From assembly GCF_051860475.1 (NCBI RefSeq), contig NZ_JBHYDW010000006.1, forward strand, positions 3,174 to 67,173: a stretch of DNA of 64,000 nucleotides, written 5' to 3'. The stretch is from Elioraea sp. Lineage in GTDB: Bacteria > Pseudomonadota > Alphaproteobacteria > Acetobacterales > Acetobacteraceae. Shown here in pieces: positions 1,306-35,930 of the stretch (its first letter is position 1; the number at the start of each line of letters is the position of its first letter). The translations under genes and the position numbers were made by a program. Under the pieces are notes generated by a model. The model worked only from the letters and a program-made list of their open reading frames with translations. It was not told the DNA's origin and made no database searches.

Positions 1306-4300
1306 TCAGGCGAACAGCGCCTCGGGGTTCAGCACGATCGTGTCGAGCGCAAGCCTGCGCTGCCCTTCCAGCACCACGCTGCCGCCCTCGAAGCCGATCA
1401 CCGTGTCCATGCCGGCCTGCGTGACGGAGAGGCTCGCCGCCGCCATGCCCTCGAACAGCAGACGGTCCTGTGCCGGGTTGAAGTCGGTCACCCGGTAGGC
1501 GCCGGGGGCCCGCACGACCAGCAGATCCTGGCCCGCCCCTGTGGTGATCCGGTCGGCGCCGCCGTTGAGCAGGAACACGTCGGCGCCGTCCGAACCGACC
1601 AGCACCTCGTCCGCCGCGCTGCCGGCATGGACGGTGAACCGGAACAGGCCGGAGGCACCGAAATCATGGCGCAGGGTCGGCAGGTCGAGCCCGTCGTGCA
1701 CGACCTGCGCCAGGCGCGGTCCGGCGGCCGGCAGGGTGGCGTCGGCGGTGTCGTAGCGCAGCACGAATTCGGTGCTGCCGGCCGCCGCGACGTCGATCGC
1801 GACCGTCTGCGGCAGTCCGGCGCCCGGCTCGCGCAGCGGCGGCCGATGCGCAAACACGAGCTCGCCATTGGCCTCGATCCGGAGGAGTCCGTGCGCGCGG
1901 CCGCCGTCGTCAGAGAAGTGGAACAGCAGCGGGCGGTCGCCCGGGTCGGAAGCCGCGGGGGGCGGGGCGGGGGCCTCGGGCGGTGCCTCCGCCTCGGGCT
2001 CCGCTGGCGCCGGGGGCGACGGCTCCGCCTCGGGCATTCTGGGCAGGACGTTGACCTCGAAGCCGCGCATGCCCGCATCCGCCATGGTCACGACGCTGCC
2101 GGGCACGGCATGGCCGTTGACCGTGATCCCCTCGATGTGCAGCGCCCGCTCGCCGAGATCCTGCCGGTACAGCACGGCGATCGGCACGGTCCCGGTGAAG
2201 TCGCCGCGCACGATCACCGTGTCGGCCACCCCATCGGACTTCAGCGCCTGCGCCTCGATCGTGTGCCGCGCGGGGTAGGTCACGCCGGCGACCATCACGG
2301 CGTAGAACGCCGAGCCCTCGAACGGGGTCTGCGAGATGCGGAACACCACCTCGTCCGGCCCCGACCCGAACACATGCATCGCCGGTTCGCGCGGCGTGGG
2401 CGGCGGCTCAGGTTCGGAGGGCGGTGGCGGGGGTGGAGGGGGCGCCTCCGAGACCGGCGGCGGCGATGGCGGAGGCACGGAGGGCAGCGTGGCCGACAGG
2501 CCGATCATGGCGGTGTCGCCGGTCAGCAGCAGATTCTTCTGGTCGACGGCGACGGCGAGGCCGTTGAACGTCGCCGACTGGATGAACAGGTTCCGATCCG
2601 CGCTCGTGTTGCCGTAATACGCGTCGTTGGTGAACCGGATCGCGATCGTCGTGTTGGCGTCGAACTCGCCGCGGATGATCAGCGTGTCGGTCTCGTTCTT
2701 TGCGCGCAGCGCCGAGGCCACCTGCACGCCGTCGAGCTGTACTCCGTCGACCAGCACGACATACTCGGCCGAGCCGTCGAACCAGGACTGGTTCAGCCGT
2801 ACCACCACCTGATCGGCCCCCTCGCCCAGTTCGACGGTCTTCGGCGTGAGCTCGGCAACCGGCGCGAGGAAGAAGATCGGCGCAACCTGCAACGGCGCCG
2901 TGGAAGGCGGCGGCGCCGGCACGCCGACCGTCGCGGTCGAAACCGCGCCGTTGGAGAGCAGCCCCCATTGCGATACCGCAAGCGCCGCGCCGTTCATCTC
3001 GGCGGCATGGACGAAGATGTCGCGGCCCTTGTTCCAGCCGGCATGCGTGTCGTTCATGAACTTCAGCCCGACCGCGGTGCCGTCGGGGAAGCTGCCGCGC
3101 ACGATCACGGTGTCGTACTCGCCATTGGCAAGCAGCGCGTTGACCGTCTGGCGCCCGCCGAGTTCCACGCCGTTGACCAGCACGACGTACTCGGACTTGC
3201 CCTGCCAGTAGTTCTGGTTGACCTGGAACACCATCTCGTCCGGACCGCTGCCGACCACCACCGTCTTCGGCGTCAGGTCCGGGCGCTCGAAGGCGATCAC
3301 GGCGGTCTCGTTCTGCGCCATCAGGCTCTTCTTCGGCGCGATGTCGAGCGTCTCGCCGTTGAGCGTGGCCGACTGCACGTACAGGTTCCGGTCGCGGCCA
3401 TAGCCGTCGCTCAGGTCGTTGACGTAACGGATCGCCAGCTTGACCGGACCGTCGGAGAAATGGCCGCGGATGATCAGCGTGTCGGTCTCGCCGGCGGAGC
3501 GGAACGCCGCGGCCTCCTGCACCCCGCCGACCTGCTTGCCGTCGAGCAGCACGACGTACTTGGCGGAGTCGAGGTACCAGTCCTGGTTCAGCCGGATTAC
3601 CACCTCGTCCGGCCCGTCGCCGAGCGCCACCGTCTTCGGCGGCAGCGGGTCGATCTCGGGAATCGCGATGACGTTCGGCTCCGGCTTCACGAGCGCCGGC
3701 GGGCTGATCATCGTCCCGTCGGCCTTGAACACGAAATCCTGCGGCGTGTTGTTCGCGAGATAGGCGCGCGTCGGCAGATCCTCGCCGTTGTAGCTGATCG
3801 CGTTGACGTAGAGGTTGCGGTCGCGTGCGAGCGAGCCGAAATAGAGGTCGTTGGTCATCTGCACGCGCACGGTGACGGTGTCGCCGAAATCGCCGCGGAT
3901 CGTCACGGTGTCGGCCTCGGCGAGCGACTTCAGCGCCGAGGCGGTGAACACGCCGCCCACCTGCTTGCCGTCGACGGAAATGACGTACTGGGCGCTGCCA
4001 TTGAACCAGTCCTGCGAGATCTTCAGCACGATCTCGTCGGGCCCCGTGCCGATCACGTGCGCGGCCGGCTTGTTCGCGGTGGTCGGGTAGAGCGGATCGT
4101 TCATGTAGAGATCGTGCAGCTCGCGGATCGTCACCGCGAACTGGGGCACGCGGACGTAGTTGTCGGTGCGCGCACCGGGCGGGGCGAGGGCGAGGAAGGT
4201 CTCGACCGCGTCGCGATAGCGCGCGTCGCCGGTGGCGGCGTAGGCCATGGTGAGGCCGCCCACCAGCATCCGGTGGTATTCCTGCTCGGTGTAGGTGAAC

Positions 4301-6084
4301 GCCCCGTCGGCATAGGTGCCGGCGGCGCGCATCACGTCCGCGACATCGCTCCAGCGGGTCAGCGGCGTGCCGTTCACGGCGGTCGGGATCGTGATCACCG
4401 CCGCGTTGTGCGGATCGAAGCCCTTGCTGGCCGAGTTGAGCGCGCCGAGCAGGAAGTTGGACATGAAGTCCAGCACCTGCAGCGCTTCCGTGCTGCCGCG
4501 CAGCGCGGAGAGCGCGACCACGCCGGCGAACATGTTGGTCTGCCAGACCGGGATGTGATCGCCGTAGGCCGCGCTCGGAATGAACCCGGCGATCTCGCCA
4601 TAGGTCGCGGTCCAGGCGTTGGCGTTGGCGAGAACCCAGTTCCAGTTGTCGGCGATCGTTTTGGTGAAGAACGCCGCCTCGGTGCTGCCGTCCTCGGCGA
4701 TCCAGGCGGCGTGTTCGAGCTGGCGCATCGACCAGGCGGCGCTGCGCAGCTGGGCGTCACGGATGACGATGCCCTCGCCGTTGCCGCGCACCGCCGGCCA
4801 GACATCCATCAGCGAGTGCGAGGCCTGGGTCATGACGTTGTCGTAGATCCAGCGCTCGCCCGTCAGCAGGTAGGGCACGAAGGAGAGGTCGGGCTGGTGC
4901 GCCCGGTCGGGCCCCCAGCCGGTGTCGGTGGAGACCTGCTGGGTGAGGCCGGTGGAGGCGCTGCTGCCGGGAGTGCCGGTGCCGCCGCGCCCGTCGGTCC
5001 AGAGCCGGGGATAGTGCTCGGTGGTGAGCACCGTGCCGTTGGCCATGTCATAGAAGTTCCACGGCACGTAGCCGGCGACCTTGGCCTGGCCGAGCGCGTA
5101 GTCCGCCGCCGCGGCATCCTGGCTGATGATCCAGGAGGCGTTCGGCGCGGTGGTGTAGCCGATGTCCGGCCGCCCGCCGGCATTGCCCATGGACTGGGCG
5201 ACCCCGTGGTTCCAGAAGATCTCGCCCCATTGGGGGTTGTTGGCGACCTGCTCGTAGTAGTGCCGCAGGTCTCCGGGGTTGATGACGAAGTCGGTGTCGT
5301 ACTGGAAGATCGCTGCCGCAGCCTTCAGGTACTCGATGTCGTGCTTGATGTTCAGCCAGCCTTCCTGCGGCGCGCCGAGGCCCTGGATGCCGTGCGCCTC
5401 GTTCGAGCTGAAGTCCAGGCTGACCCGCTGGTACTGACCATGGCTCAGGCCCTGCTCGAACACCGTCGCGCCGTCCAGCGTGACGGTGGCGACATAGTTG
5501 AGCCGCCCGCCGACCGCTTCCATCGCGCGGTCGTTGTTGAGCCCGACGGTGAAGCGGATCTCGCCATCGGCGTAGCCGGTGACGTCGAGCACCACGCGCA
5601 GCGAGGAGTTCTCGACCGGGATCTCGACGCGCGCCTGGGTCGCGAACGGGCCCTGCTGCCAGAACGACGCCGTGCCGGTCGCGATCGCCTGCGTGACGGC
5701 CGCGCCGATGTCGATGCCGAGCGGCGCCCGGCCGTCCTCGATCGCGAGCGTCAGGCTGGCGCTGTGCCCGGCAAGCACCTGCGCGAGCGAGACCGGCGCG
5801 GCCGGCGCTGCGGCCCCGCCGGCGAGCAGGGTCGCGGTCGCCTCCTGCCACGGCGCGAGCTCCGGCCGCTCCATGGTCAGCACCGCCATCTTCACCGACC
5901 CGTCGGGGTGGGTGTTGCGCACATCGACCTGCACCGCGACGAGCTGGCCGCCGATCTCGGCCAGCAACTGCTGGCCGGGCAGCAGGTCGCCGGCCTGGAA
6001 GGTCTGGCCGAAGGACGCGAAACCGCCCGCGAGGGTCAGCACGCCAGCATTCTGGAACGTCACCTGGGTGATCGGATCGGGCAT
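1306..6084 (-). CDS. Large secreted multidomain protein (1592 aa): lyase-like N-terminal region, five CBM60-like repeats, Pro-rich linkers and an RTX/T1SS-type C-terminus
   Basis: N-terminal FGQTF..GD..HPDGSVK (PcRGLX/YetA-like). Five repeats G.GPDE(V/I)V.....Y.V.VDG....G.........DT...RG.F......NDx..DRNL(Y/F)V. C-terminal GSAADEVLVGSDGADVFLLNGGADRITTGAGQD...VTDFNPAQDRL. GGAG RBS. Confidence 0.8.
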   Translation of the reverse strand: MPDPITQVTFQNAGVLTLAGGFASFGQTFQAGDLLPGQQLLAEIGGQLVAVQVDVRNTHPDGSVKMAVLTMERPELAPWQEATATLLAGGAAAPAAPVSLAQVLAGHSASLTLAIEDGRAPLGIDIGAAVTQAIATGTASFWQQGPFATQARVEIPVENSSLRVVLDVTGYADGEIRFTVGLNNDRAMEAVGGRLNYVATVTLDGATVFEQGLSHGQYQRVSLDFSSNEAHGIQGLGAPQEGWLNIKHDIEYLKAAAAIFQYDTDFVINPGDLRHYYEQVANNPQWGEIFWNHGVAQSMGNAGGRPDIGYTTAPNASWIISQDAAAADYALGQAKVAGYVPWNFYDMANGTVLTTEHYPRLWTDGRGGTGTPGSSASTGLTQQVSTDTGWGPDRAHQPDLSFVPYLLTGERWIYDNVMTQASHSLMDVWPAVRGNGEGIVIRDAQLRSAAWSMRQLEHAAWIAEDGSTEAAFFTKTIADNWNWVLANANAWTATYGEIAGFIPSAAYGDHIPVWQTNMFAGVVALSALRGSTEALQVLDFMSNFLLGALNSASKGFDPHNAAVITIPTAVNGTPLTRWSDVADVMRAAGTYADGAFTYTEQEYHRMLVGGLTMAYAATGDARYRDAVETFLALAPPGARTDNYVRVPQFAVTIRELHDLYMNDPLYPTTANKPAAHVIGTGPDEIVLKISQDWFNGSAQYVISVDGKQVGGVFTASALKSLAEADTVTIRGDFGDTVTVRVQMTNDLYFGSLARDRNLYVNAISYNGEDLPTRAYLANNTPQDFVFKADGTMISPPALVKPEPNVIAIPEIDPLPPKTVALGDGPDEVVIRLNQDWYLDSAKYVVLLDGKQVGGVQEAAAFRSAGETDTLIIRGHFSDGPVKLAIRYVNDLSDGYGRDRNLYVQSATLNGETLDIAPKKSLMAQNETAVIAFERPDLTPKTVVVGSGPDEMVFQVNQNYWQGKSEYVVLVNGVELGGRQTVNALLANGEYDTVIVRGSFPDGTAVGLKFMNDTHAGWNKGRDIFVHAAEMNGAALAVSQWGLLSNGAVSTATVGVPAPPPSTAPLQVAPIFFLAPVAELTPKTVELGEGADQVVVRLNQSWFDGSAEYVVLVDGVQLDGVQVASALRAKNETDTLIIRGEFDANTTIAIRFTNDAYYGNTSADRNLFIQSATFNGLAVAVDQKNLLLTGDTAMIGLSATLPSVPPPSPPPVSEAPPPPPPPPSEPEPPPTPREPAMHVFGSGPDEVVFRISQTPFEGSAFYAVMVAGVTYPARHTIEAQALKSDGVADTVIVRGDFTGTVPIAVLYRQDLGERALHIEGITVNGHAVPGSVVTMADAGMRGFEVNVLPRMPEAEPSPPAPAEPEAEAPPEAPAPPPAASDPGDRPLLFHFSDDGGRAHGLLRIEANGELVFAHRPPLREPGAGLPQTVAIDVAAAGSTEFVLRYDTADATLPAAGPRLAQVVHDGLDLPTLRHDFGASGLFRFTVHAGSAADEVLVGSDGADVFLLNGGADRITTGAGQDLLVVRAPGAYRVTDFNPAQDRLLFEGMAAASLSVTQAGMDTVIGFEGGSVVLEGQRRLALDTIVLNPEALFA

Positions 6085-9126: not shown

Positions 9127-9166
9127 CGCTCGCCTCCTCGGTTCCACGGCCGGATGAGGCCCGGCG

Positions 9167-9475
9167 GTGCACGCGGCGGCTATCCGCTTTCGGTCAGCCC
9201 ATCCGCGGACGGCCAGATTCTTCATCGCCGGGCGGTACGGCGCCGCCGCGCTCTGGCTGCGGAAGGAAGTGCTGGCGAACCCCGCCGCCGCCTGGGTCAA
9301 CCGCCAGCTCGCCGCGAACTACGCCCTGCTCGGCGACCGCCCCGCCGCGCTCGGCGCGATGTGCCGCGCATACCCGGACGCCACGGTGGACAGCGTCGCG
9401 GCGGTCCCCCCGCCCATCGCCGCGTGCCGCGAGCGAACCGTCGAGACGCTGGCCGGGCGCGGCCTGCCCCGCTGA
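9167..9475 (+). pseudogene. Probable C-terminal TPR fragment (adenylate-cyclase/TolB-associated type)
   Basis: FFIAGRYGAAALWLRK..LANPAAAWVNRQLAANYALLG...RAYPDATV....ETLAGRGLP resembles TPR tails. There is no convincing start. Confidence 0.45.
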
Positions 9476-20948: not shown

Positions 20949-20970
20949 CCTTGGCGTCCGCACCCGCGCC

Positions 20971-23043: not shown

Positions 23044-24461
23044 GCAAGCCGAAGCTCCTGGTGGTCGAGGACGATCCCGCGCTCTGCGCCCAGTACAAGT
23101 GGGGCTTCCCGGCCTGGCGCGTGCTGATCGCGAATGATCGCGTCGAGGCCGAAGCGGTCGCGCGGCGCGAGCAACCCGCCGTGGTGCTGCTCGATCTCGG
23201 CCTGCCGCCCGACGCGGAGGGCGTGGCCGAGGGGTTCGCGGCGCTCGAGACGCTGCGCCGGCTCGCGCCGACCATGCCGGTGGTGGTGTCCTCGGGCCAG
23301 GACCACCGCGAGAACATGCTGCGCGCGATCGCGCTCGGCGCCTACGATTTCTGCGAGAAGCCGGCCGACCTGGCGCTGCTCCGCACCGTGCTCGACCGGG
23401 CGCTGCGCCTGCGCGAGCTCGAGGAGGAGAACCTCCGTCTCGCCGCCCAGCCCCGCCCCTCGCCGATCCGCGACCTCCTCACCGGCGACGAGGGGATGCT
23501 GAAGGTCTGCCGCACGGTGGAACGGCTCGCCTCCGTATCGGTGCCGGTGCTGCTGCTCGGCGAATCCGGCACCGGCAAGGAGGCGCTCGCGCGCGCGCTG
23601 CACGAGATGGGCACGCGCGCGGCGAAGCCCTTCATCCCGATCAACGCCGCCGCGATCCCCGAGACGCTGCTCGAGGCCGAGCTGTTCGGCCACGAGAAGG
23701 GCGCCTTCACCGGTGCGGTGCGCCAGGTGATCGGCAAGATCGAGCAGGCCAACGGCGGCACGCTCTTTCTCGACGAGATCGGCGATCTGCCCGGCAACCT
23801 GCAGGCCAAGCTGCTGCGCTTCCTCCAGGAGCAGATGATCGAGCGGATCGGCGGGCGGAGCCAGATCAAGGTCGATGTGCGCTTCGTCTCAGCGACCAAC
23901 CAGCCGCTCGAGCAGCAGGTCGAGGAGGGCCGCTTCCGCGCCGACCTGCTCTACCGGCTGAACGCCGTGACCGTGCGCATCCCGCCCTTGCGCGAGCGCG
24001 GCGAGGACGCGGCCCTGCTCGCGCGCGCCTTCCTCGCCCGCGACGGGCGCGAGTTCGGCCGCCGCTTCCGCGGCTTCGATGCCTCCGCCCTCGCCGCGAT
24101 CGCGGCCCATCCCTGGCCCGGCAATGTGCGCGAGCTGATGAACCGGGTGCGCCGTGCGGCGCTGATGGCCGAGGGCCCGCTGGTCAACGCCGAGGATCTC
24201 GAACTCGCCGCTCCCGATCGCGCCGCGATCGCCGCGCAGGAGGCCGACAGCGAGGTCGATCTCGATCTGCGCGCCGCGCGGATGCGCGCCGAGCGCGAGA
24301 CGATCGAGCGCGCGCTTGCGCGCAGCCAGGGCAGCCTCACCGCCGCCGCGCGGCTGCTCGGGATCAGCCGCCCCACCCTCTACACCCTGCTCGATACGCA
24401 CGGGATCCCGCTGCCGCGCCCCGAGGCTGGCAGCCCCGCCGCGTCCATCGACGCCGTCTGA
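23040..24461 (+). CDS. prsR: PEP-CTERM-box sigma-54 response regulator PrsR, 473 aa
   Basis: Receiver domain (LLDLGLPPD), AAA+ [29 protein letters not shown], Fis-type HTH. Confidence 0.95.
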
Positions 24462-24473
24462 CGGAGACACGCC

Positions 24474-27293
24474 ATGGCACGACCCCTCACCACGCGGATT
24501 GCCGCCCCCCTCGCCTTCGCCGCCGCGCTGATGCTGGCAGTGCCGGCCGACGCCTCGGTCGACCGCGCCCGCGCGGCGCAGCAGCGGGGCGACCTGCGCG
24601 CGGCCCAGATCGAGTTCCGCAACGCCGTGCGCGCCAGTCCGGACGATCCCGCGCTGCGGGCGGCGCTCGCCCGGGCGAGCCTCGATCTCGGCGACGGCGA
24701 CACCGCCGAGAAGGAGGCGCGCGCCGCGCTCGAGCGCGGCTACGACCGCGCGGACGGCACCGCGCTGCTGCTGCGCGCCTACATGACGCTGCGCCGCTTC
24801 GAGGAGATCCTGCGGGAGTTCCCGATGCAGGAGGGCCAGGTGCCGAACGCGGTCGCGGGCCAGGTCGCGGCCGGACGGAGCATGGCCTATCTCGCGCTGA
24901 ACCGGCGCGAGGACGCTGCCCGCGCCGCCGCCGATGCGGTCCGCCTCGCCCCCGACCGGGTCGATCCGCAGCTCGCCGCCGCCACCGTCGCCGCCGTGGC
25001 CGGCGACCGCGACGCCTCCGAGGCTGCGGTGGACCGCGCGCTCGCGATCGAGCCCGACAACGCCGACGCGTTGCTGCGCAAGGGCGGATTCCAGTTCGAG
25101 CGCGGCCAGCTCGCCGAGGCCTCCACCACCTTCGCCCGGGTGCTGGAGCTCGCGCCCGGCCATATCCCCGCCCGGCTGCGCCGCGGCGAGGTGCTGCTGC
25201 GCATGGGCAACGACGCCGAGGCGCGCCAGGAGATCGACCGGGTGCTGCGGCTCGCGCCAAGCGCGGTGCTGGGGATCTACATGAGCGCGATGCTGCACGG
25301 CCGCGCGCAGGACTGGCCGGCGGCGGACGAGGCGCTGCAGCGGATCCAGGGCCAGCTGCCCAACATCCCCGACGGGCTGTTGCTGTTCGCCACCGTCAAG
25401 CGCGCGCTCAACCAGCTCGAGCAGGCCGAGGACGCGGCGCGCCGCCATGTCGCGCGCCGGCCCGAGGATCCGCGCGGCGCCAAGCTGCTCGCCACGCTCG
25501 AGCTGCAGCGCGGCGCCGCCGATGCCGCCGCCGGCACGCTCGACCGGCTGGCGCAGCGCGGCGCGGCGGACGCCGAGGCCTATGACCTGCTGGGCCGCGC
25601 GCATGCGCAGATGGGACGCCGGCAGGAGGCGCTCGACGCGTTCAGCAAGGCATCCGAGCTCGCCGCCGACAATGCCGGCGTGCTCGCCCGGCTGGCGGTC
25701 GCCCGCCTCGCCACCGGCGACGCGGGCGGCGCGCAGCAGGCGGCGGAGGCGGCCCTCGCGCGCAACCCCGACCAGGCCGGCGCGCGCGAGATCCTGGCAT
25801 CCGCGGCACTCGCCCGCGGCGATCTCGCGGCCGCCTCGGCCCAGCTGGAGCGGCTCGGCCCGGCCGCGCGCGGCGGCGAGCTCGCCGGCGTGCTGGACGG
25901 CACGATCCGGGTGGTGCGGCTCGACATCGAAGGCGGCAAGCAAGCCTTCGAGGCGGTGCTGCGCGACCATCCGAACAGCGTGCGGGCGCGGCTCGGGCTT
26001 GCCCGCGTCGCCGCCATGCAGGGCGATCTGGAACGTGCCGAGCGGCTGTTCGGCGAGGTGCTGGAGCGCGAGCCGGGCAACCCGGAGGCGCTCGCGCGGC
26101 TCTCCGCGGCGGTGATAACCGGGGGGCCGCGCGCGGCGTCCTCGCGCGCCGTGCTGGAGACGGCGAACGCCGCCCAGCCCGGCGATCCCGCGCTCGCGAT
26201 GGCGCTCGGCACGGTGCTGGTGCGCGCCGGCGAGCCGGCCAAGGCGGCCGCCGTGCTGGATGCGCCCGCGTTCCGCGAGCGCCGCCGCGAGACCCGCCAC
26301 CTGCTGCTGCTGGCCGAGGCGCGCGCCGCCGCCGAGCAGCCGCGGGAGGCCGAGGAGGCCGCGCGCGCGGCGATGGCGCAGGACCCGGACAATCCGCTCG
26401 CCCGCCGCGTGGTGGCGGGGCTGCTCCTGCGCGCGAACGATCCGCGCGCCGCCGAGACGGTGCTTGAGCAGGGGCTGCGCAGCCGGCCGACCGATGCGCT
26501 GCTGCAGCAATCCCTGATCCAGACGGTGCGTGAGGGCCGCGGCCTCGACGCGGCGCTCGAGGTCGCCGACCGGCTGGCGCGCCAGGAGGCCACCCGCCCG
26601 ACCTCGCTGACGCTGCGCGGGGACCTGCTGATGGGCGCGGAGCGGTTCGAGGAGGCCGCCGCCGCCTACGCCGCCGCCTACCAGCAGGCGCCGTCGGGCG
26701 TGCTCGCGCAGCGGCGCGCGGCGGCCCTGCAGCGGCTCGGCAGGACGGACCAGGTCATGGCCGCGCTCGCCGCCTGGCTCGAGCGCCAGCCGGGCGACAC
26801 GCCGATCCTGGCGCTGCTGTCGCAGATCGAGATCGGCACCGGCAAGACCGTCGAGGCCGAGCGGCGGCTCGTGCAGGTGGTCGCGGCGCGGCCCGAGGAC
26901 GCGGTGTCGCTGAACAACCTCGCCTGGCTGATGCAGGCGCGCAGCACCCCCGAGACGGCCGAGGGCCGGGCCACGCTCGCGCAGGCGCGGCAGTACGCCG
27001 AGCGCGCCTACTACCTCGCGCCCTCGGCGGAGACCGCCGACACGCTCGGCTGGATCCTGGCGCGCACCGGCGAGGCCGCGCGCGCGGTGCCGCTGCTGCG
27101 CCAGGCGGCAGCGGCGTCGATGGCGCGGCAGCGTCCGGATGCCTCGATGTTCTACCGCTACGCGGTGGCGCTCGACGCGACCGGGCAGCGCGAGGAGGCG
27201 CGGCGCGTGATCGAGCCGGTGGTCGCCTCCACCGCGCAGTTCCCCGAGCGGGCAGAAGCCGAGCGGCTGCTCGCGCGGCTGCGCGGGGGCTGA
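24474..27293 (+). CDS. prsT: PEP-CTERM system TPR protein PrsT, 939 aa
   Basis: AAQIEFRNAV, many TPR repeats, LNNLAWL...ADTLGWIL, position after prsR. Confidence 0.9.
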   Translation: MARPLTTRIAAPLAFAAALMLAVPADASVDRARAAQQRGDLRAAQIEFRNAVRASPDDPALRAALARASLDLGDGDTAEKEARAALERGYDRADGTALLLRAYMTLRRFEEILREFPMQEGQVPNAVAGQVAAGRSMAYLALNRREDAARAAADAVRLAPDRVDPQLAAATVAAVAGDRDASEAAVDRALAIEPDNADALLRKGGFQFERGQLAEASTTFARVLELAPGHIPARLRRGEVLLRMGNDAEARQEIDRVLRLAPSAVLGIYMSAMLHGRAQDWPAADEALQRIQGQLPNIPDGLLLFATVKRALNQLEQAEDAARRHVARRPEDPRGAKLLATLELQRGAADAAAGTLDRLAQRGAADAEAYDLLGRAHAQMGRRQEALDAFSKASELAADNAGVLARLAVARLATGDAGGAQQAAEAALARNPDQAGAREILASAALARGDLAAASAQLERLGPAARGGELAGVLDGTIRVVRLDIEGGKQAFEAVLRDHPNSVRARLGLARVAAMQGDLERAERLFGEVLEREPGNPEALARLSAAVITGGPRAASSRAVLETANAAQPGDPALAMALGTVLVRAGEPAKAAAVLDAPAFRERRRETRHLLLLAEARAAAEQPREAEEAARAAMAQDPDNPLARRVVAGLLLRANDPRAAETVLEQGLRSRPTDALLQQSLIQTVREGRGLDAALEVADRLARQEATRPTSLTLRGDLLMGAERFEEAAAAYAAAYQQAPSGVLAQRRAAALQRLGRTDQVMAALAAWLERQPGDTPILALLSQIEIGTGKTVEAERRLVQVVAARPEDAVSLNNLAWLMQARSTPETAEGRATLAQARQYAERAYYLAPSAETADTLGWILARTGEAARAVPLLRQAAAASMARQRPDASMFYRYAVALDATGQREEARRVIEPVVASTAQFPERAEAERLLARLRGG

Positions 27294-27323
27294 TCAGGCG
27301 ACGGGCGGCGGCCGGGCAGGGCG

Positions 27324-28667
27324 ATGCGCGACCTCTTCTTCACCATGCTGATGGTCCCGCTGCTGGGGCTTGCCGGCGCGCAGCCGTTCGTCGGCGTGCT
27401 GCTGTGGTCGTGGATCTCGTTCATGAGCCCCCATCAGCTGACCTGGGGGTTCGCGGCCACGCTGCCCTGGGCGGCGATCGTGTTCATGGTGACGATCGTC
27501 GGCTGCTTCGTCGCGCGCGAGCCCAGACGCATCCCGCTCAACGTCCTCACCGTGCTGGTCGCGCTGCTGATGGTGGGGATCACCATCACCTCCTTCGCCG
27601 CACTCGGTCCGACCGAGATGGTCTGGCCGAAATGGGACCGCGTCTTCAAGATCATGCTCGGTGTGCTGCTGACCGCCTCGCTGCTGGACAGCCGCAGGCG
27701 GGTGCACGCGCTGATCTGGCTGATCGTGGTCTCGCTCGGCTATTTCGGCGTGAAGGGGGGGATCTTCACGCTGAAATCCGGCGGCGGCCACATCGTGCTG
27801 GGACCGCCGAACAGCATGATCTCCGACCGCAACCAGCTGGCGGCGGCGCTGCTGGTCTCGCTGCCGCTGATGAACTACCTGCGCCTGCAGTCGCGCCACC
27901 GGATGGTGCGGCTGGGCTTCGCGTTCGCGATGGCGACCACGCTGTTCTCGGTGGTGGGCAGCCAGTCGCGCGGCGCCCTGGTCGGGCTGGCGGCAACCGC
28001 GGTGGTGCTGTGGGCGCGCAGCCGCGGCAAGATCGTCTCCGGCGTGGCGATCGCGCTGTTCGTCGGCCTGGCGCTCGCGTTCATGCCCGACAGCTGGACC
28101 GAGCGCATGAACACGATTCTCAACTACGAGGAGGACGGCTCGGCGATGGGCCGGGTCACGGTCTGGCTGGCCTCGTTCGAGATCGCGCGCGCCCGGCCGC
28201 TGCTCGGCGGCGGGTTCCGCGCGATGTACATCCAGGCGGTCGTCGACCAGGTCATGCCGGGTGTCGCGGCCCGCGCCGCGCACAGCATCTGGTTCGAGGT
28301 GATCGGCGAGCAGGGCTTCATCGTCGCCGGGATCTGGTTCGCGATGCTGTTCACCGGCGGGTTCTACACGCTGCGGATCGTGCGCATGACACGCCACCGG
28401 CCCGATCTCCGCTGGGCCCATGACCTCGCGCGCATGACCCAGGTGGCGATGGTCGCGTACATGTCGGCAGGCTCGTTCGTCTCGCTCGCCTACTGGGACT
28501 GCTTCTGGACGCTGATGATCACGATGGGGGCGGTGCATCGACTGGTGAGCGAGGCCGTCCGCACGGCCCCCGCCGCCGCTTCCGCATCCGCCGCCGGCTG
28601 GCGCGCGCGCGCGCCGGTCGCCGCCACCCCGCCGCTGGGTCCGGCGCGCGCCGGCCTCAGGCCATGA
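27324..28667 (+). CDS. Exosortase A-associated O-glycosylation ligase / Wzy-like membrane protein (TIGR03097-type)
   Basis: MRDL..., PFVGVLLWSWISFMSPH, SRGALVGL, ERMNTI..YEEDGSAMGR, AAHSIWFEVIGEQG. Confidence 0.9.
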   Translation: MRDLFFTMLMVPLLGLAGAQPFVGVLLWSWISFMSPHQLTWGFAATLPWAAIVFMVTIVGCFVAREPRRIPLNVLTVLVALLMVGITITSFAALGPTEMVWPKWDRVFKIMLGVLLTASLLDSRRRVHALIWLIVVSLGYFGVKGGIFTLKSGGGHIVLGPPNSMISDRNQLAAALLVSLPLMNYLRLQSRHRMVRLGFAFAMATTLFSVVGSQSRGALVGLAATAVVLWARSRGKIVSGVAIALFVGLALAFMPDSWTERMNTILNYEEDGSAMGRVTVWLASFEIARARPLLGGGFRAMYIQAVVDQVMPGVAARAAHSIWFEVIGEQGFIVAGIWFAMLFTGGFYTLRIVRMTRHRPDLRWAHDLARMTQVAMVAYMSAGSFVSLAYWDCFWTLMITMGAVHRLVSEAVRTAPAAASASAAGWRARAPVAATPPLGPARAGLRP

Positions 28668-28698
28668 GAGACGCCGCGACCGAACAGGGAGATCTCGG

Positions 28699-29025
28699 AT
28701 GGAGAGCCTCTACTACCTCATCATGCTCCTCGGGATCGTCTGGCTCTGCGCCTGGAGCATCGCCCCGGAGCCGTACCGCACCCAGTTCTGGTGGCCCTTC
28801 GACATGCACGCCGACGCTGACGGCGCCGCGCGCGACGCCGGCGACGGCGGCGGCGAGAGCGCCCGAGGCCGGGCGCGCCGAGGCAGCGCGGCCATGCCAG
28901 CAAGCCCTGTCGCGGCCACTCCGGCTGCTGACCTTCAGCACGCTCTACCCAAACCCCGCCCAGCCCAATCATGGCGTGTTCGTCGAGAACAGGCTCAGGC
29001 ACCTGGTCGCTGGCGACGCGGCTGA
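28699..29025 (+). CDS. Small membrane protein (N-terminal TM helix, WWPFDM motif); 3' part overlaps the next gene
   Basis: GGGAG RBS. MESLYYLIMLLGIVWLCAWSIAPEPYRTQFWWPFDM. Host-like GC3 codons up to about 28895. Confidence 0.55.
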   Translation: MESLYYLIMLLGIVWLCAWSIAPEPYRTQFWWPFDMHADADGAARDAGDGGGESARGRARRGSAAMPASPVAATPAADLQHALPKPRPAQSWRVRREQAQAPGRWRRG

Positions 29026-30100
29026 GAGCACCGTGCTCGCCCCGGTGCCGTGGTTTCCCGGCCGCGGCCCGGACGGACGCCCGAAAGCCGGCTTTCCCGA
29101 AATCCCGATCCGCGAGACCCGCCACGGCATCACGGTGCACCACCCGCGCTTCCTCGCCGTACCCGGGCTCGGGATGGTCTCCAATCCCTTCACGCTCCAC
29201 CGCGCGGCGAAGCGGGCGGTCGCGCGGATGGTGGCGGACGGCGTCGCCTTCGATGCGATCGACGCGCACTACCTCTACCCCGACGGCGTCGCGGCGGTGT
29301 GGCTCGCGCGCGACTACGGCGTGCCCGTGGTGCTGACCGCGCGCGGGTCGGACACGTCCCAGCTGCCGCACTACCGCATTCCGGGGCGGCTGATCCGCGC
29401 CGCGATCGCGCGCGCCGACGCGCTGATCGCGGTCAGTGCGGCGCTGAAGGAGGGGCTCGTTTCGCTCGGTGCGGCGCCGGAGAAGGTGACGGTGCTGCGC
29501 AACGGCGTCGACCTGGACACGTTCCGCCCCCTGCCCGACCGCGCGGCGGCGCGCGCCGAGCTCGGCTTCGACGGCCCCACCCTGCTCTCGGTCGGCCTGC
29601 TGATCGAGCGCAAGCGCCACCACCTGACGATCGAGGCGCTCGCGCGTCTGCCCGGGCACCGCCTGGTGATCGCGGGCGAGGGGCCGGAACGATCCGCGCT
29701 CGCAGCGCTCGCCGCGCGCCTCGGCGTCGCCGAGCGCGTGCGCCTGGTCGGGCCGGTGCCGCATGCGCGCCTGCCGCTCTACTACGGCGCGGCGGACGTG
29801 ATGGTGCTCGCCTCCTCGCGCGAGGGCTGGGCGAACGTGCTGCTGGAATCGATGGCCTGCGGCACGCCGGTCGTTGCGACGCCAGCCTGGGGCTCGCGCG
29901 AGGCGGTCGCGGCGCCGGAGGCCGGGCTGGTGCTCGACGAGGCCACGCCCGAGGCGCTTGCCGCCGGCATCCGCCGCGTGCTCGCCGCCCCGGCCGATCG
30001 CGCCGCCACCCGCGCCTATGCCGAGCGGTTCGGCTGGGACGAGACCACGGCCGGCCAGCTCGCGCTGTTCCGCCGCGTGCTGGGGCATCGAGAGACATGA
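28919..30100 (+). CDS. Glycosyltransferase family 4 (start unresolved; open frame extends up to 28664)
   Basis: LRLLTFSTLYPNP.QPNHGVFVENRL, IDAHYLYPDG, SSREGWANVLLESMACGTPVV. Confidence 0.9.
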   Translation, partial: LRLLTFSTLYPNPAQPNHGVFVENRLRHLVAGDAAESTVLAPVPWFPGRGPDGRPKAGFPEIPIRETRHGITVHHPRFLAVPGLGMVSNPFTLHRAAKRAVARMVADGVAFDAIDAHYLYPDGVAAVWLARDYGVPVVLTARGSDTSQLPHYRIPGRLIRAAIARADALIAVSAALKEGLVSLGAAPEKVTVLRNGVDLDTFRPLPDRAAARAELGFDGPTLLSVGLLIERKRHHLTIEALARLPGHRLVIAGEGPERSALAALAARLGVAERVRLVGPVPHARLPLYYGAADVMVLASSREGWANVLLESMACGTPVVATPAWGSREAVAAPEAGLVLDEATPEALAAGIRRVLAAPADRAATRAYAERFGWDETTAGQLALFRRVLGHRET

Positions 30101-30531
30101 AGCTCACCCGCCGCGAGCTCGCGCCCCTCGCGCTCTCGATCGCGGCCGCCTGCGCCTCGCCGGTGCCGCCGGCGATCGCGCAGCAGCGGCGGCCGCCGCC
30201 CCGTGCCCTGCCGCCGCCGCCGCCCATGCCGGCACCGCGGCGCGCGGGCGATATCGGCGGGCTGGTGCTCGAAGGCCACGGCACTCCCGCCGGCACCGTG
30301 ATGCTGGTCGGCCACGCCTTCCCGCCGGGTGCCCTGCCGCGCGGGCACGGCGTGGCGCTCAGGCTGGTCGCCGGGGATCGTCCGATCGAGGCGGCGCTGC
30401 AGGTGCTCGCGCGCCACCCGGACGGCTCGGCGCGGGCCGGACTGATCAGCCTCGCCGCGCCGGCGCTGCCGCGCGGCGGCCGCGCCGGCGTGCTGATCGC
30501 ACGGGTTCCCGCCCAGGGCTCGGCACTGTAG
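30097..30531 (+). CDS. Tat-exported 144-aa protein: stand-alone copy of the lyase-like N-terminal domain
   Basis: ATGA overlap with the GT stop. MKLTRRELAPLALS twin-Arg signal. GHAFPPGALP...RHPDGSARAGL, homologous to the N-termini of 1306-6084 and 31731-35930. Confidence 0.75.
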   Translation: MKLTRRELAPLALSIAAACASPVPPAIAQQRRPPPRALPPPPPMPAPRRAGDIGGLVLEGHGTPAGTVMLVGHAFPPGALPRGHGVALRLVAGDRPIEAALQVLARHPDGSARAGLISLAAPALPRGGRAGVLIARVPAQGSAL

Positions 30532-31527: not shown

Positions 31528-31730
31528 GGTGAAGCCATCGGGCGAGTTGCGCCTGCCCGACCGCGCCCGCCATGCCACCCGCCCTGCCGGCGCCGCCTGC
31601 CCACGCAATGCGGCACGCCGACCCGTCGCGATCCCCGTCGTGTGAGTGCCGAGACGGCCCGCCGGGACGGCGGGGATGCCGTCGCGTGCCTGTCCGCCGC
31701 CATCGCGCTACCGTCATTCCGGAGCCCCGC

Positions 31731-34700
31731 ATGCCCCGCATCCTCCCCTCCCGTGGAGCACTGCTCCGCCGCCGCACCCCTGTCCTGCCGCAGATCAGCA
31801 TCGCCACGCCGGTCTCGCCGCAGCCACCGGGTGCGCCGATCCTCGTCTCCGGCACCTATGGCGGCAGCCCCACGGCGATCACCCTCGTCTGGCGCCAGAA
31901 CGGCCAGGACATCTCCGCGCCGGTCGCCGCCACCACGCTCTCCGCGGGCCAGTGGTCAGCCACCCTCACCACGCCGGCCCAGGAAGGCGATTACGTCCTG
32001 CGGGTCGCCTTCGATGACATCGCCCCAGTCGCCGACAGCGAGCCGATCCAGATCGTCGCAGGCGCGGCACAGGCGACGCAGGCCGCCTTCGTGTTCGAGG
32101 GCACGGGCACGACCACCGACACCGTCGCCCTGTTCGGACACGCCTTCGAGCGGGGCATGCTTGCCCCCGCCGACCCGGTGGTGCTGCGCCGCACGGACAC
32201 CCAGGCGCCGCTGCGCACCCAGCTGAACCCGCTCAGCACCTGGACCGACGGCAGCGTGAAGACCGCGCTGCTCGCCGCCGAGCTTCCCGCCCTCGCCGAC
32301 CAGGCGACGCTGACGGCCGAGCTGGTGCGCGGCGCGGCGCATCCCGACCCCGGCAGCACGCTCGCCTTCACGACCGCGCTCTCCGGCCGCAGCGCCGTCG
32401 TCACCGTCTATCCGGCGAGCGGCAGCCCCTGGGTGTTCGACGTGCTCGGCGCGATCGGCGCGGATCGCTGGCACCAGGGGCCGCTCGCGCTCTCGACGCG
32501 GGTGGCCACCGCGGTGCCGCAATCGGCCTGCGGCGTGACCTCCGTGCGGCTGATGGTCGACGTGGTCGTCACCAAGGAGGGGTTTCTCGAACTCGATGTC
32601 TGCTTCTCGAACGACCGGGTGCAGCACTCGGGCGGCGGCATCGCCACCTTCGGCTACACCATCACGATCGACGGGACGACGGTCTACGATCAGCGGCCGA
32701 GCTCGGGGGCGGCGCGCCAGCTTCTGCAGTATTCGCAGTGGATCCGCCGCCGCGGCCGCGCGGTCGGCGCGGCGATGCCCGAGCGGCCCTTCGTCCGCCC
32801 CGACCTCGACCTGCTGGTGCGCGCCGGCGTGCAGCTCGACTACGACCGCAGCCAGGCGATCGGCACTCCGCATGTGACCGGCTCGGTGGACAACGTGCTG
32901 GCCGCCGGCAGCGCGGTGCCGACCGATCCCTACTGGCATTGGGGGCTGGCGCGCGGCGCCGGCGATGTCGGCGGCCGGCCGGAGATCGGCTACCGCACCT
33001 TCGCCTGCGCGATGTGGCTGCGCGACGGCTACCGCAACGCGATCTCGCTCGCGCACCGGCAGTTCGAGGCGGCCTCGACGCGCGGCATGTACTTCTACGA
33101 CTGGGATCTCGGCCGCTGGCTCAACCCGGTGGACTGGCCAAGGATGGCGTACACGGCGCATTCGGCCTCGCCCGCCGGCACCTCGCGCGCCACCGCCACA
33201 GGCTTGCCGTCCGATCAGCGGCCGACCCACAACACCACCGACCACATCACGATCGACCACGCGCATCACGGCTCGTTCAACTGGACCGTGGCGCTGCTGT
33301 CCGGCCGCCGCCTCGCCTATGACGGGCTGGCCGCACGCTCGGCCTGGGCGTCGATGGACCAGCAGATCAAGGCGAACGGGGCGCTCGGGGCGAACGTGCC
33401 GGACTGGCGCAGTTTCACCCCCGACCACACCACCGGGCGCGCCTGGGCGGTGCGGCCCTGGGCACCGCAGACGCGCTCCTGGGCCTGGGACTTCCGCGAC
33501 ATCGTCGACTGCGCGACGATCCTGCCCGACGGCTACGAGGGCGCGCACCGCCTCTTCTACGACCGCAACGTCGAAGCCTGGGTGAACAGCGTCAAGGACG
33601 TGCTGCCGCTCGTCCGGTCGATGTTCACGGCGAATGTCATCGGCACGCCGATGCTCCACGCCGACGAGAACCACCTCGCCGGCTTCATGTACTCCTTCAT
33701 CTTCTACGGCGCCGGCACGGCGATGAAGGCCGGCGTAGGCGGCGCGAACCTGGCCGAGGTGGTCGAGGGCTGGACGACGTTCCGCACCGGCAGCGTGATC
33801 GACGGCGGCTATCCCTATCGCAGCGCGCTCGCCGGCGGGAACATCAACGTGCGCGGCAACCCCCAGCCGCCGTTCAACGCGCAGACCTGGGCCGAAGCCT
33901 GGGCCAAGTCGCAGGCGGCCGGCATGCCGACCGTGCCGGAGGACTGGTCGGCTGGACAGCAGGAGGGCGACTGGCAGCGCAACACGCTGTCCGGGCTCGC
34001 GCTGATGCTCGATCTCGACCTGCCGGTCGGGCTGAAGGCGCGGGTCGCGGACTCGCTCGTGCTGCTGCGCTCGGAGCGGCAGAACGCGCAGGCGCACCCG
34101 CATCCGCGCACCCAGCCGAACGACTTCTTCTCGAGCTTCTTCATGTCGAACACGGTCACGTCGCTCGGCGTGACCTGGCAGTGGGACAGCGCGCCCGTGA
34201 TCGTGCCGGGGCAGTCCTTCCAGGTCGCGGGCGATGCGGCGCCCGGCGCGATCGTCGGCGTGGTGCGGTTCACCGGGCCGATCCCGCGCAACAGCGACTC
34301 CGGGCTGACGCCGGCAACCAAGGCGTGGGAGATCACGGCGCAGCCCGCCGGCGATCCGTTCACGATCAGCCAGGGCGGCGCGATCAGCCTCGCCGGCAAC
34401 CCGCCCGCCGCCGGCACGTCGAGCGTGACCGTGCGCGCGCGGACCTACAACCAGAACTCCACCACGCCCATCCTGTCCGCGCCGGTGACGGTGAGCATCA
34501 CCACGACCGCGGTGCCGGCGGAGATCCTCTCGGTCACCCCAGCGAGCCCGCAGGAGGTGCTGGTCGGCGCGCCGGTCGGCACGACGATCTATACCGTGGC
34601 GGTGCGCGGCAATGCGCCAATCACCCCCAGCATCGCGAGCGGCAACACGACGCTGTTCGAGTTCGTGCCCGCGACCGGCAACAGCTACGTCGTGCGCACC

Positions 34701-35930
34701 AGGGCGACGCTGAGCCTCGGCACCTATCCGCTGACGCTGCGCGTCGAGAACGCGCACGGCCAGGCCACGATCGATGTCTCGGTCGGCGTGGTCGAGAACG
34801 TGACGGCATCGGTCGTCACGCTTGGACAGACGATCGAACTGCGCGAGACGATGACCGCGGGCCAGCAGGCCGAGAGCACGATCGCCTACACCGGCGACCC
34901 GCCGGGCAGCGCGGCCATCATCGCGGGCAACGACGCCGGCCTGCTGGCCTCGCCGCTCACCATCGACGGCGCGCAGGTGCGCCTGTTCACGGCCGGACCG
35001 GTGCGCAAGCGCGACGTGGCGCAGATCACCCCGACCATCCAGATGTACAACGCCGCCAACGCCGCCAATCCGTCGAGCGCGGTCGTCACGGTCAACGTCG
35101 CGCAGCCCTGGGTGCACCGCGCGGCCGCGCCGAGCCTGACCTATATCGGCGTCTGGTCGATCGCGCGCCGCCTGGTGGAGACCTACACGGGGCCGCTGAT
35201 CCGCATCCGCCGTGCGAGCGACAACGCGGAAGCCGATATCGGCTTCGTGCCGAGCGGCGGGCACCACGTGCTCGACGAGGCGGCGGTGACGGGCTTCGCC
35301 GGCGCGAGCAACTGGTTCATCCGCACGATCTACGACCAGTCCACCGAGGGCGCACATCTCCAGCAGGCCAATGCCTCGGTCCAGCCGCTCGGCGGCGCCT
35401 CCGGCGGGTTCACGCGCGTGGGCGCGAACAACCGCGCGGGCGCGCTGTTCGGCTCGAACCGGCGGATGGACCATACCTTCACGGTCCTGCCCGCCGGCGA
35501 CACGCTGGCGCTCTACACGGCGGTGCAGATGCACAGCTCCGTCGCCGGGTTCCAGCGGATCGCCGCGGTCGCCGAGCTGCAGCTGATGACGGACAGCGGC
35601 CCGCCCTATCTGCTGCTGGGCAATGGCGGGGTGAAGCACTCCCAGACCACCACGGCGGGCCAGAACGTGATCCTCTACGCGCGCCACCGCAACGTCATCA
35701 GCGCCGCGGACCGCAACCGCGTCGGCTTCACCGCCCGCGCGGTCGAGGTGTCGACCGGCGGCAACAACGCGCTGACCACCAGCAATGCGCAGGTGACGCT
35801 GGGGACGAACAATCAGGGCCACAACCCGTGGCCCGGCCGCTGCGCCGAGCTGGTGCTGGCGAGCGCCCTGACGGTCGGCACCGAGGAGGCCGGCCTCTAC
35901 GCGGCCGCGGGCGCCTTCTTCGGCGTGTAG
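31731..35930 (+). CDS. Large multidomain protein (1399 aa): Ig-like N-terminus, lyase-like catalytic region, cadherin-like repeats, C-terminal ConA/LamG-like domain
   Basis: GGAG RBS before ATG 31731. FGHAFERG..TWTDGSVK, GGRPEIGY, DHAH, QTRSWAW shared with 1306-6084. WSIARRLVETYTGPLIRIRRASDNAEADIGF...YDQS lectin-like motif. Confidence 0.78.
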   Translation: MPRILPSRGALLRRRTPVLPQISIATPVSPQPPGAPILVSGTYGGSPTAITLVWRQNGQDISAPVAATTLSAGQWSATLTTPAQEGDYVLRVAFDDIAPVADSEPIQIVAGAAQATQAAFVFEGTGTTTDTVALFGHAFERGMLAPADPVVLRRTDTQAPLRTQLNPLSTWTDGSVKTALLAAELPALADQATLTAELVRGAAHPDPGSTLAFTTALSGRSAVVTVYPASGSPWVFDVLGAIGADRWHQGPLALSTRVATAVPQSACGVTSVRLMVDVVVTKEGFLELDVCFSNDRVQHSGGGIATFGYTITIDGTTVYDQRPSSGAARQLLQYSQWIRRRGRAVGAAMPERPFVRPDLDLLVRAGVQLDYDRSQAIGTPHVTGSVDNVLAAGSAVPTDPYWHWGLARGAGDVGGRPEIGYRTFACAMWLRDGYRNAISLAHRQFEAASTRGMYFYDWDLGRWLNPVDWPRMAYTAHSASPAGTSRATATGLPSDQRPTHNTTDHITIDHAHHGSFNWTVALLSGRRLAYDGLAARSAWASMDQQIKANGALGANVPDWRSFTPDHTTGRAWAVRPWAPQTRSWAWDFRDIVDCATILPDGYEGAHRLFYDRNVEAWVNSVKDVLPLVRSMFTANVIGTPMLHADENHLAGFMYSFIFYGAGTAMKAGVGGANLAEVVEGWTTFRTGSVIDGGYPYRSALAGGNINVRGNPQPPFNAQTWAEAWAKSQAAGMPTVPEDWSAGQQEGDWQRNTLSGLALMLDLDLPVGLKARVADSLVLLRSERQNAQAHPHPRTQPNDFFSSFFMSNTVTSLGVTWQWDSAPVIVPGQSFQVAGDAAPGAIVGVVRFTGPIPRNSDSGLTPATKAWEITAQPAGDPFTISQGGAISLAGNPPAAGTSSVTVRARTYNQNSTTPILSAPVTVSITTTAVPAEILSVTPASPQEVLVGAPVGTTIYTVAVRGNAPITPSIASGNTTLFEFVPATGNSYVVRTRATLSLGTYPLTLRVENAHGQATIDVSVGVVENVTASVVTLGQTIELRETMTAGQQAESTIAYTGDPPGSAAIIAGNDAGLLASPLTIDGAQVRLFTAGPVRKRDVAQITPTIQMYNAANAANPSSAVVTVNVAQPWVHRAAAPSLTYIGVWSIARRLVETYTGPLIRIRRASDNAEADIGFVPSGGHHVLDEAAVTGFAGASNWFIRTIYDQSTEGAHLQQANASVQPLGGASGGFTRVGANNRAGALFGSNRRMDHTFTVLPAGDTLALYTAVQMHSSVAGFQRIAAVAELQLMTDSGPPYLLLGNGGVKHSQTTTAGQNVILYARHRNVISAADRNRVGFTARAVEVSTGGNNALTTSNAQVTLGTNNQGHNPWPGRCAELVLASALTVGTEEAGLYAAAGAFFGV

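Follow-up and report, generated by a model that had tools for sequence, protein, structure and literature searches.

A window of 64,000 nucleotides from Elioraea sp. (assembly GCF_051860475.1, contig NZ_JBHYDW010000006.1, positions 3,174 to 67,173) was analysed. Its G+C content is 72%, and nearly all of it is one very large XrtA/PEP-CTERM exopolysaccharide (EPS) locus. The regulators encoded in the window are PrsK (TIGR02916, 1e-148), PrsR and PrsT. The assembly and export genes comprise a Wzy/O-antigen-ligase-like gene, many glycosyltransferase (GT) genes of the GT4 and GT2 families, a Wzx-type flippase, Wzz/GNVR with its tyrosine kinase, and Poly_export. XrtA-system markers are a TIGR03016 outer-membrane protein, a pepcterm FemAB protein, a DUF3473 deacetylase, an AAA_22 ATPase and three PEP-CTERM proteins. 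Three genes inside this locus, here called A, B and C, belong to one protein family that is not among the described components of XrtA/PEP-CTERM systems. Their features are as follows (AF2, AlphaFold2; CBM, carbohydrate-binding module; aa, amino acid residues).

1306..6084, minus strand: gene A, 1592 aa; core, five CBM60-like repeats and RTX tail
5800..6084, minus strand: RIFT barrel of A, aa 1-95 (AF2 model); invariant F29, Q52 and D61-G62-S63
5335..5799, minus strand: beta-sandwich of A, aa ~96-250 (AF2 model); invariant N184-D185 and Q217-Y218
4090..5334, minus strand: alpha/alpha toroid of A, aa ~251-665 (AF2 model, alignment A2); invariant or near-invariant R305, D307, H396, D415, R447, W451, R454 and W578
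2080..4068, minus strand: five CBM60-like, Ca-dependent carbohydrate-binding repeats of A (Pfam CBM60 3.1e-32, repeat map)
1309..1635, minus strand: RTX nonapeptide block and C-terminal tail of A, putative type I secretion signal
31731..35930, plus strand: gene B, 1399 aa as called; Ig-like domain, core, cadherin-like repeats and LamG/AbfB-like C-terminal domain
32073..32330, plus strand: RIFT barrel of B (Pfam PcRGLX_1st, AF2 model)
32394 to ~32798, plus strand: beta-sandwich of B (AF2 model)
32805-34151, plus strand: alpha/alpha toroid of B (AF2 model, Foldseek against PL26)
34212..35111, plus strand: cadherin-like repeats of B (profile A1 against PDB cadherins, E 1.7e-28; Pfam Cadherin in orthologs)
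35124..35927, plus strand: C-terminal jelly-roll domain of B (partial AbfB match; C-terminus conserved in orthologs)
30097..30531, plus strand: gene C, 144 aa; signal peptide, Pro-rich linker and RIFT barrel only (30247-30516)

The three genes had been taken for paralogs on the strength of shared motifs, and the sequence comparisons bear this out. Each motif pair that the sequence-only reading listed for A and B was found in the translations, with the coordinates right. In BLASTP, residues 10-466 of A and 173-654 of B form a single colinear alignment of about 490 residues with 28% identity (E 4e-28). C matches just the first domain, about 90 residues long, of the core shared by A and B. Its matches cover 59 residues of B (39% identity, E 3e-8) and 62 residues of A (27%, E 0.005), in both cases at the start of the core. 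When the whole 4.7-Mb genome was searched in six frames with the B core, only the A, B and C loci were recovered. A and B look like real genes, since the G+C content at their third codon positions is 0.92-0.94. The family alignment (29 sequences, 24-45% identity) contains 15 invariant and about 29 near-invariant columns. Many Trp residues together with N184, D185, Y218, R305, H396, R447 and R454 (A numbering) are conserved in both A and B, and invariant Trp, Asn, Asp, Tyr, Arg and His are common to all clades of the family. Neither an invariant Glu nor an obvious carboxylate pair is seen in the alignment. C retains the family-invariant residues of the barrel.

AlphaFold2 models were made for the core of B from alignment A1 and for the core of A from alignment A2. 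The pLDDT was 92.5 for B and 93.5 for A, and the pTM was 0.94 for both. The two models are not unrelated folds: both consist, in the same order, of a RIFT barrel of about 90 residues, a beta-sandwich of about 135-155 residues and an alpha/alpha toroid of about 420-450 residues. When the B core was compared with the PDB by Foldseek, the sole matches at E < 1e-3 were chains of PcRGLX, an exo-rhamnogalacturonan lyase of polysaccharide lyase family 26 (PL26), with E values from 2.4e-6 to 4.8e-5. PcRGLX was also the best match of the A core (2e-6), followed by BACCELL_00875 of PL27 (5.6e-6) and, more weakly, by (alpha/alpha)6 glycosidases of glycoside hydrolase families GH76, GH88/105 and GH48. The structural alignments to PcRGLX have a probability of 1.0 and 8-12% identity. 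The PL27 comparison is a fold match of A only (E 5.6e-6, TM 0.25), with no sequence match to any PDB chain. PL27 is described as a lyase that acts on Rha-alpha1,4-GlcA and combines a beta-sandwich with an (alpha/alpha)6 structure (PMC8377490).

At the sequence level, the Pfam model PcRGLX_1st (PF19501) matches B with 23.4-25.4 bits against a cut-off of 22.1. The same model matches 20 of 28 relatives at E <= 0.01, and in A and most A-type members it stays sub-threshold (E 1e-4 to 1e-2). No model in Pfam or NCBIfam covers the family core, and no PcRGLX/YetA-like gene was found among 200 genomes of the phylum. The resemblance to the PcRGLX/YetA architecture that had been proposed stands at a remote level, through PcRGLX_1st, the barrel-sandwich-toroid order and the best PDB match. 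It does not extend to the models of the second and third PcRGLX domains, which fail. Because only the barrel reaches Pfam and these two models fail, the core is, as judged from the predicted structures, a distinct and unmodelled family, which appears to be a remote fold relative of PL26 rather than a PL26 member and to be lyase-like in fold only.

Outside the core, A carries CBM60-like repeats starting at residues 679, 822, 945, 1087 and 1240, with Pro-rich linkers between them, and a degenerate sixth repeat. The HemolysinCabind match in the RTX block (residues 1488-1522, 4.2e-5) is just above the cut-off. A-type relatives have strong RTX and serralysin-type C-terminal domains. A has no N-terminal signal peptide, and its N-terminus begins directly with the barrel. 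A gene for a PrtD-like ABC exporter is present elsewhere in the genome (C36:487-2097; 481 bits, cut-off 510). A therefore has what is expected of an RTX substrate: C-terminal repeats, no N-terminal signal, and an ABC exporter of a type I secretion system (T1SS) encoded in the same genome. These features make type I secretion the likely route of A, and they agree with the earlier description of A as a T1SS-delivered protein with CBMs.

The start of B at 31731 is that of the gene caller (product P0004), and the open frame extends back to 31572. An Ig-like domain precedes the core. The C-terminal jelly-roll matches the AbfB catalytic beta-sandwich (PF09206) with 3.2e-12 over profile positions 13-102 of 315, and we read it as a LamG-like domain. 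Delivery of B through cadherin and lectin domains, as had been suggested, is borne out as far as the cadherin-like and LamG-like domains are concerned, and not in respect of export, for which no signal is detectable. Of the 9 other genomes of the genus, 8 have retained B, in most cases at a distance of 9-14 kb from prsK. In one near-complete genome of the genus (G002), C lies about 7 kb from prsK (C6:445028-445462) and B on another contig (C7:151590-153785), so B and C are not always linked.

C, an intact open reading frame (ORF), shares an ATGA overlap with the stop of the GT4 gene before it. Its predicted signal peptide, which may serve Tat or Sec export, is of a twin-arginine-like type and has a conserved Cys that may be lipidated. 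In sister genera, a full-length C-type protein of about 700 residues with a signal peptide is encoded at the same position, after prsK-prsR-prsT-wzy-GT. When the locus proteins of the window were compared by tblastn with 80 family loci, 17 were found to carry such a member, and these 17 proteins share 37-55% identity with C at their N-terminus. In this region of the window, full-length C-type queries hit 30247-30513 only, with nothing downstream, and C corresponds to residues ~8-135 of the ~700 of its full-length orthologs. Among the other genomes of the genus, 8 of 9 match a full-length C-type query of 699 residues. Seven of these matches are barrel-only (query residues ~7-135), and the remaining genome (G003) has only a long A-type-like match. 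Six copies of C are complete, intact ORFs of 138-150 aa, and the seventh, in G008, is cut by the contig end. The six complete copies share the stop position, the RR n-region, the Cys, the Pro-rich linker and the barrel motifs, at 33-69% identity and with pairwise dN/dS of 0.26-0.72. In most of these genomes no more than about 6 kb separates C from B. In several species the stretch preceding the Cys makes a poor lipobox, and Ala-x-Ala sites come after the Cys.

The ORF at 30586-31473 was considered as the missing half of a split C and was rejected: it does not resemble the family, and nothing of the family was found downstream of 30531. On the comparisons above, C appears to be an old barrel-only truncation of a third orthogroup, retained as a small exported protein, and it perhaps serves as an adaptor or binding subunit. 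The proposal of one catalytic scaffold with three delivery routes fails at this point. Since C lacks the sandwich and the toroid, it does not count as a third route by which the enzyme is delivered.

The family reaches far beyond this genome. A search with the A core returned 1,794 representative proteins at E <= 1e-3 and 412 at E <= 1e-30 (50%-identity clusters), and those members that have a name are called 'hypothetical' or 'calcium-binding protein'. Among named genomes, it is concentrated in the group of Roseomonas, Falsiroseomonas, Roseococcus, Elioraea and Crenalkalicoccus, with a few outliers. A quick maximum-likelihood tree, in which one mis-extracted row (L062) sits on a long branch, gave four supported clades: the A-type, which includes A of the window; the C-type, which includes the metagenomic protein P0106; a clade called 'far', which includes P0113 and P0158, both encoded beside xrtA; and the B-type.

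The locus counts given here come from related genomes, which are not independent samples, and are reported as counts without statistics. Among C-type loci with full flanks, 12 of 13 carry XrtA-system markers and keep the gene order of the window. Nine A-type loci have XrtA markers (xrtA, FemAB, deacetylase, AAA22, outer-membrane protein) at less than 10 kb, xrtA itself in eight of them, and some EPS marker is present in 20 of the 38 A-type loci with full flanks. Four distant metagenomic members were also examined. P0113, P0106 and P0158 are found in XrtA/PrsK loci, either beside xrtA or after prsK/R/T-wzy, and P0074 in a glycosyltransferase cluster. Of 200 other genomes sampled evenly across the phylum, one has the family, 23 kb from its xrtA. 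Among 40 relatives, PrsK is encoded in 10 of the 12 family-positive genomes, and the two without it have a completeness of 75% and 87%. The C-type loci, the distant members, the phylum sample and the relatives together tie the family to XrtA/PrsK loci well beyond this genome, as had been predicted.

The B-type proteins form a long-stemmed clade, and their sister subclade (P0047, P0048 and P0050) has Gp80 tail-fibre N-termini. P0047, which matches PHROG tail proteins, and P0048 are encoded in small phage-like cassettes. The cassettes (L105:5578-16338 and L106:1666-13136, on metagenome and NCBI contigs) are conserved and contain roughly nine to ten genes between housekeeping genes, namely small ORFs, genes for Gp80-domain proteins and a gene for a fibre-like protein of 1711-1997 aa that bears the B-type core. 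By its gene content, such a cassette looks like a phage- or gene transfer agent (GTA)-like tail-fibre module using an enzyme-like domain. Two phage proteins in BFVD have the same fold, with TM 0.5-0.6.

The genes that surround A, B and C in the window are listed below.

1..226, minus strand: 5' end of xrtA; the rest runs off the left edge (G000:C6:1903-3399)
362-1084 (feature 362..1144), minus strand: PEP-CTERM protein gene between A and xrtA
20863-23043, plus strand: prsK, in a conserved block with prsR, prsT, wzy and GT4
23034-24461, plus strand: prsR
24474-27293, plus strand: prsT
27324-28667, plus strand: wzy/O-antigen-ligase-like gene
28664-30100, plus strand: GT4 gene
30586-31473, plus strand: ORF after C, 295 aa, conserved, without Pfam/NCBIfam match, where the remainder of the C-type gene would be
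35974-36984, plus strand: ORF after B, 336 aa, conserved, without Pfam/NCBIfam match

At the left end the order of transcription is GT, gene A, PEP-CTERM gene and xrtA. The block prsK-prsR-prsT-wzy-GT4 (20863..30100, plus strand) ends in the full-length C-type gene in sister genera. The only match of the ORF at 30586-31473 is a PHROG of unknown function (phrog_1903, 8.6e-8). Relatives of the ORF at 35974-36984 were seen near A-type genes in two Roseomonas loci (L017 and L022). The PEP-CTERM sorting signal (PF07589) is found in the neighbouring genes at 362-1084, 47895-48503 and 62244-63305, and has no match in A, B or C. Perfect sigma-54 -24/-12 matches (TGGCAC-N5-TTGC) are present at 1130-1144 (minus), directly before the PEP-CTERM gene that lies between A and xrtA, and at 46514-46528 and 47403-47417 (both plus). 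Seven matches were found in all against 3.8 expected by chance, so that only their positions are suggestive.

Two further sets of genes in the EPS cluster were noted. A molybdopterin oxidoreductase gene (sulfite-oxidase-like; Oxidored_molyb and Mo-co_dimer) at 7957-9300 (minus) is located between the pepcterm FemAB gene and the GT gene adjacent to A. Such a gene is unusual for an EPS locus, and no counterpart was noticed in the equivalent loci of other genera. Mobile-DNA-type genes are also present: those for a RepA_C plasmid replication protein (55304-56305, minus), a ParA/VirC1-like ATPase (39088-39759, minus), a serine resolvase (39976-40923, plus) and a PIN-domain protein (45835-46302, plus).

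With moderate confidence, we consider A and B to be extracytoplasmic polysaccharide-active enzymes that would cleave or trim the EPS of their own locus. We infer this glycan-processing role from the neighbourhood, the fold neighbours that are enzymes only, the residues that are invariant across clades, and the fusion to CBMs and fibre anchors. Acting on the polymer made by the locus, the core could control chain length, release or remodelling, and the matrix trimming or release that the sequence-only reading envisaged may be part of this function. The A-type proteins would be exported by a type I system, and their CBM60-like modules would keep the enzyme bound to the matrix. The C-type proteins of about 700 residues would probably work in the periplasm or envelope, like AlgL and BcsZ in their own systems. 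In the highly diverged B-type proteins, the core is joined to Ig, cadherin-like and LamG-like domains that are presumed to bind. Their sister group with phage tail-fibre anchors has what would be the usual layout of a glycan-recognising, often depolymerase-bearing fibre. In this genus, the C-type gene seems to have been cut to its barrel, which would live on as a small exported protein. As to chemistry, toroid lyases carry out beta-elimination with His, Tyr, Asn and Arg residues of this kind, and the His/Tyr/Asn/Arg set of the family, without an invariant Glu, leans weakly by analogy towards beta-elimination over hydrolysis. A wider proposal is tentative and, in our view, rather doubtful: the family would be a new enzyme family beside PL26/PL27, an XrtA-EPS depolymerase reused by phage- or GTA-like fibres, with the barrel alone, as in C, working as a docking subunit.

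Several observations weigh against A and B being enzymes for the EPS of their own locus. The TM-scores of the fold matches to PL26/PL27 are low (0.22-0.36). PcRGLX_2nd (PF21345), which we take to be the central beta-sandwich, has no match in the genome at E <= 10 and none in A or B by hmmscan at E <= 0.1. PcRGLX_3rd (PF21346), presumably the C-terminal alpha/alpha toroid, likewise has no match in the genome at E <= 10. As these models fail, the catalytic residues of PcRGLX are not transferable to the family. When A, B and the profiles A1 and A2 were compared with all PDB chains, only the accessory domains were matched (cadherin, AbfB sandwich, RTX) and never the core. No UDP-sugar dehydrogenase is encoded in the window, and the two in the genome are on other contigs, so a uronate-containing substrate, as needed by a lyase, is hypothetical. 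No Sec, Tat, RTX or PEP-CTERM signal was recognised in B or its orthologs, and the sigma-54 promoter scan gave no site before A, B or C. The genomic association is also incomplete. An XrtA marker lies within 10 kb in only 7 of the 38 A-type loci with full flanks, and the Skermanella plasmid copies are outside any EPS locus. The family is missing from 7 of the 17 PrsK-positive relatives. It is thus an accessory rather than a core component of XrtA loci, to which it is, on the genomes compared, strongly but not exclusively linked.

Other explanations were weighed against the same data. The core could be a non-catalytic module for polysaccharide binding or scaffolding, which as an adhesin or a matrix organiser would tie EPS to PEP-CTERM proteins or the cell. 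The accessory domains are indeed all binders (CBM60, cadherin-like, LamG-like), the alignment offers neither an invariant Glu nor a carboxylate pair, and the lone barrel kept in this genus suggests a non-catalytic role of the barrel itself. The Rap proteins of Rhizobium, which are cadherin-like EPS lectins secreted by a T1SS, are a precedent for such a role. Against this, the significant fold neighbours are all enzymes, the combination of conserved Asn, Asp, Tyr, Arg and His with many Trp is what a cleft for glycan processing typically shows, and an extra binder of 660 aa would hardly be needed beside five CBMs. A purely binding core is judged unlikely. That the enzymes serve nutrition or competition by attacking foreign polysaccharides, such as plant or algal pectin-like glycans or the EPS of competitors, with their position in an EPS locus being incidental, is very unlikely in our assessment. 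PL26 and PL27, the closest folds, are catabolic exo-lyases for plant glycans, the CBM60 family is defined on xylan and galactan binding (Pfam description), and many A-type copies are away from XrtA markers. These points are opposed by the position of the C-type gene after prsKRT-wzy-GT, which is fixed across many genera, by the distant members beside xrtA, and by the near confinement of the family, among relatives, to PrsK-positive genomes. Moreover, no sugar-uptake or catabolic genes adjoin A, B or C.

The remaining alternatives concern single genes. B might come from a phage- or GTA-like tail fibre through mobile DNA, and not from the EPS machinery; it could then recognise or degrade EPS as a receptor. 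The sister subclade with its Gp80 N-termini, PHROG tail matches and phage-like cassettes speaks for this origin, as do the lack of a secretion signal in B, which is shared with virion proteins, the ParA-like and resolvase genes 3-4 kb downstream of B, and the separate contigs of B and the prsK locus in G002. B itself, in contrast, has no Gp80 domain, neither A nor B matches PHROGs, the B core has no match in 50,697 phage records, and no other phage structural gene was seen among the scanned ORFs of the window. With B also retained near prsK in most genomes of the genus, a tail-fibre origin is quite unlikely. C, for its part, could be a decaying and functionless pseudogene of the C-type gene, as it covers so small a part of the full-length protein and no remainder follows it. 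Six complete ORFs, with a seventh cut by a contig end, have nevertheless stayed intact and kept their common features in spite of their divergence. Their dN/dS values and the retained barrel residues point the same way, and decay of C is considered improbable.

The reading of A and B as enzymes for the EPS of their own locus has consequences for XrtA/PEP-CTERM systems, on which many environmental and wastewater bacteria depend to form flocs and biofilms and whose polysaccharide chemistry and turnover are almost unknown. A conserved enzyme candidate is a direct handle for cutting, sizing and analysing the polymer and for the control of matrix release. If active, the family would be a new CAZy family with a fold so far found in only two rhamnose-uronate lyase families, and it would explain about 1,800 clusters (50%-identity representatives) that are now 'hypothetical' or 'calcium-binding protein'. 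The link to tail fibres suggests that phage-like particles may use the same module to get through the matrix.

That no such module is described for XrtA loci agrees with the sources consulted. The founding description of PEP-CTERM (Haft 2006) mentions no lyase or hydrolase component (PMC1569441), and full-text literature searches returned no paper whose title or abstract describes such a component in XrtA/PEP-CTERM loci.

Among characterised enzymes, the nearest in structure is PcRGLX of Penicillium chrysogenum (PL26; 5XQ3, 5XQG, 5XQJ, 5XQO), together with YetA-like proteins. The likeness consists in the domain order and the PcRGLX_1st barrel, and PcRGLX is the best PDB fold match of both A and B (E 2e-6). 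The proteins differ in size: the sandwich of the family has about 135-155 residues and the core about 670-700, whereas PcRGLX has about 885, and the PcRGLX_2nd and PcRGLX_3rd models, of 360 and 411 positions, match nothing in the family. They also differ in setting, which is biosynthetic for the family, whose activity is predicted only, and catabolic for PcRGLX. BACCELL_00875 (L-Rha-alpha1,4-GlcA lyase, PL27; 5NO8, 5NOK, 5NOA), the second-best fold match for A, is a catabolic enzyme of gut Bacteroides. Its TM to A is about 0.25, its match to B is not significant, and it has no relation to the family at the sequence level. In phage tailspike and fibre depolymerases, the likeness is to the sister clade of B, which joins a Gp80 anchor to an enzyme-like core followed by Ig or lectin domains. 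The classical spikes with depolymerase activity are trimers of beta-helices, and B has neither a virion-anchor domain nor phage neighbours.

In logic, the closest systems are the depolymerases of other EPS loci. AlgL (PL5), BcsZ (GH8), PslG and ExoK are encoded in EPS loci, AlgL and BcsZ being alpha/alpha-barrel enzymes, and ExsH of Sinorhizobium and PlyA/PlyB of Rhizobium are RTX-type glycanases secreted by a T1SS. AlgL, BcsZ and ExoK would be parallels to the periplasmic C-type, and ExsH and PlyA/PlyB to the RTX-bearing A. In each case a polymer-cleaving enzyme is encoded together with the biosynthesis genes; for the present family that activity is predicted. All of these enzymes belong to protein families unrelated to that of A, B and C, and to our knowledge none of them has been described for XrtA/PEP-CTERM loci. 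An EPS locus with its own depolymerase is well known. What is new here is the protein family, whose fold is remotely PL26/PL27-like and which recurs in XrtA loci, along with its barrel-only derivative and its tail-fibre fusions.

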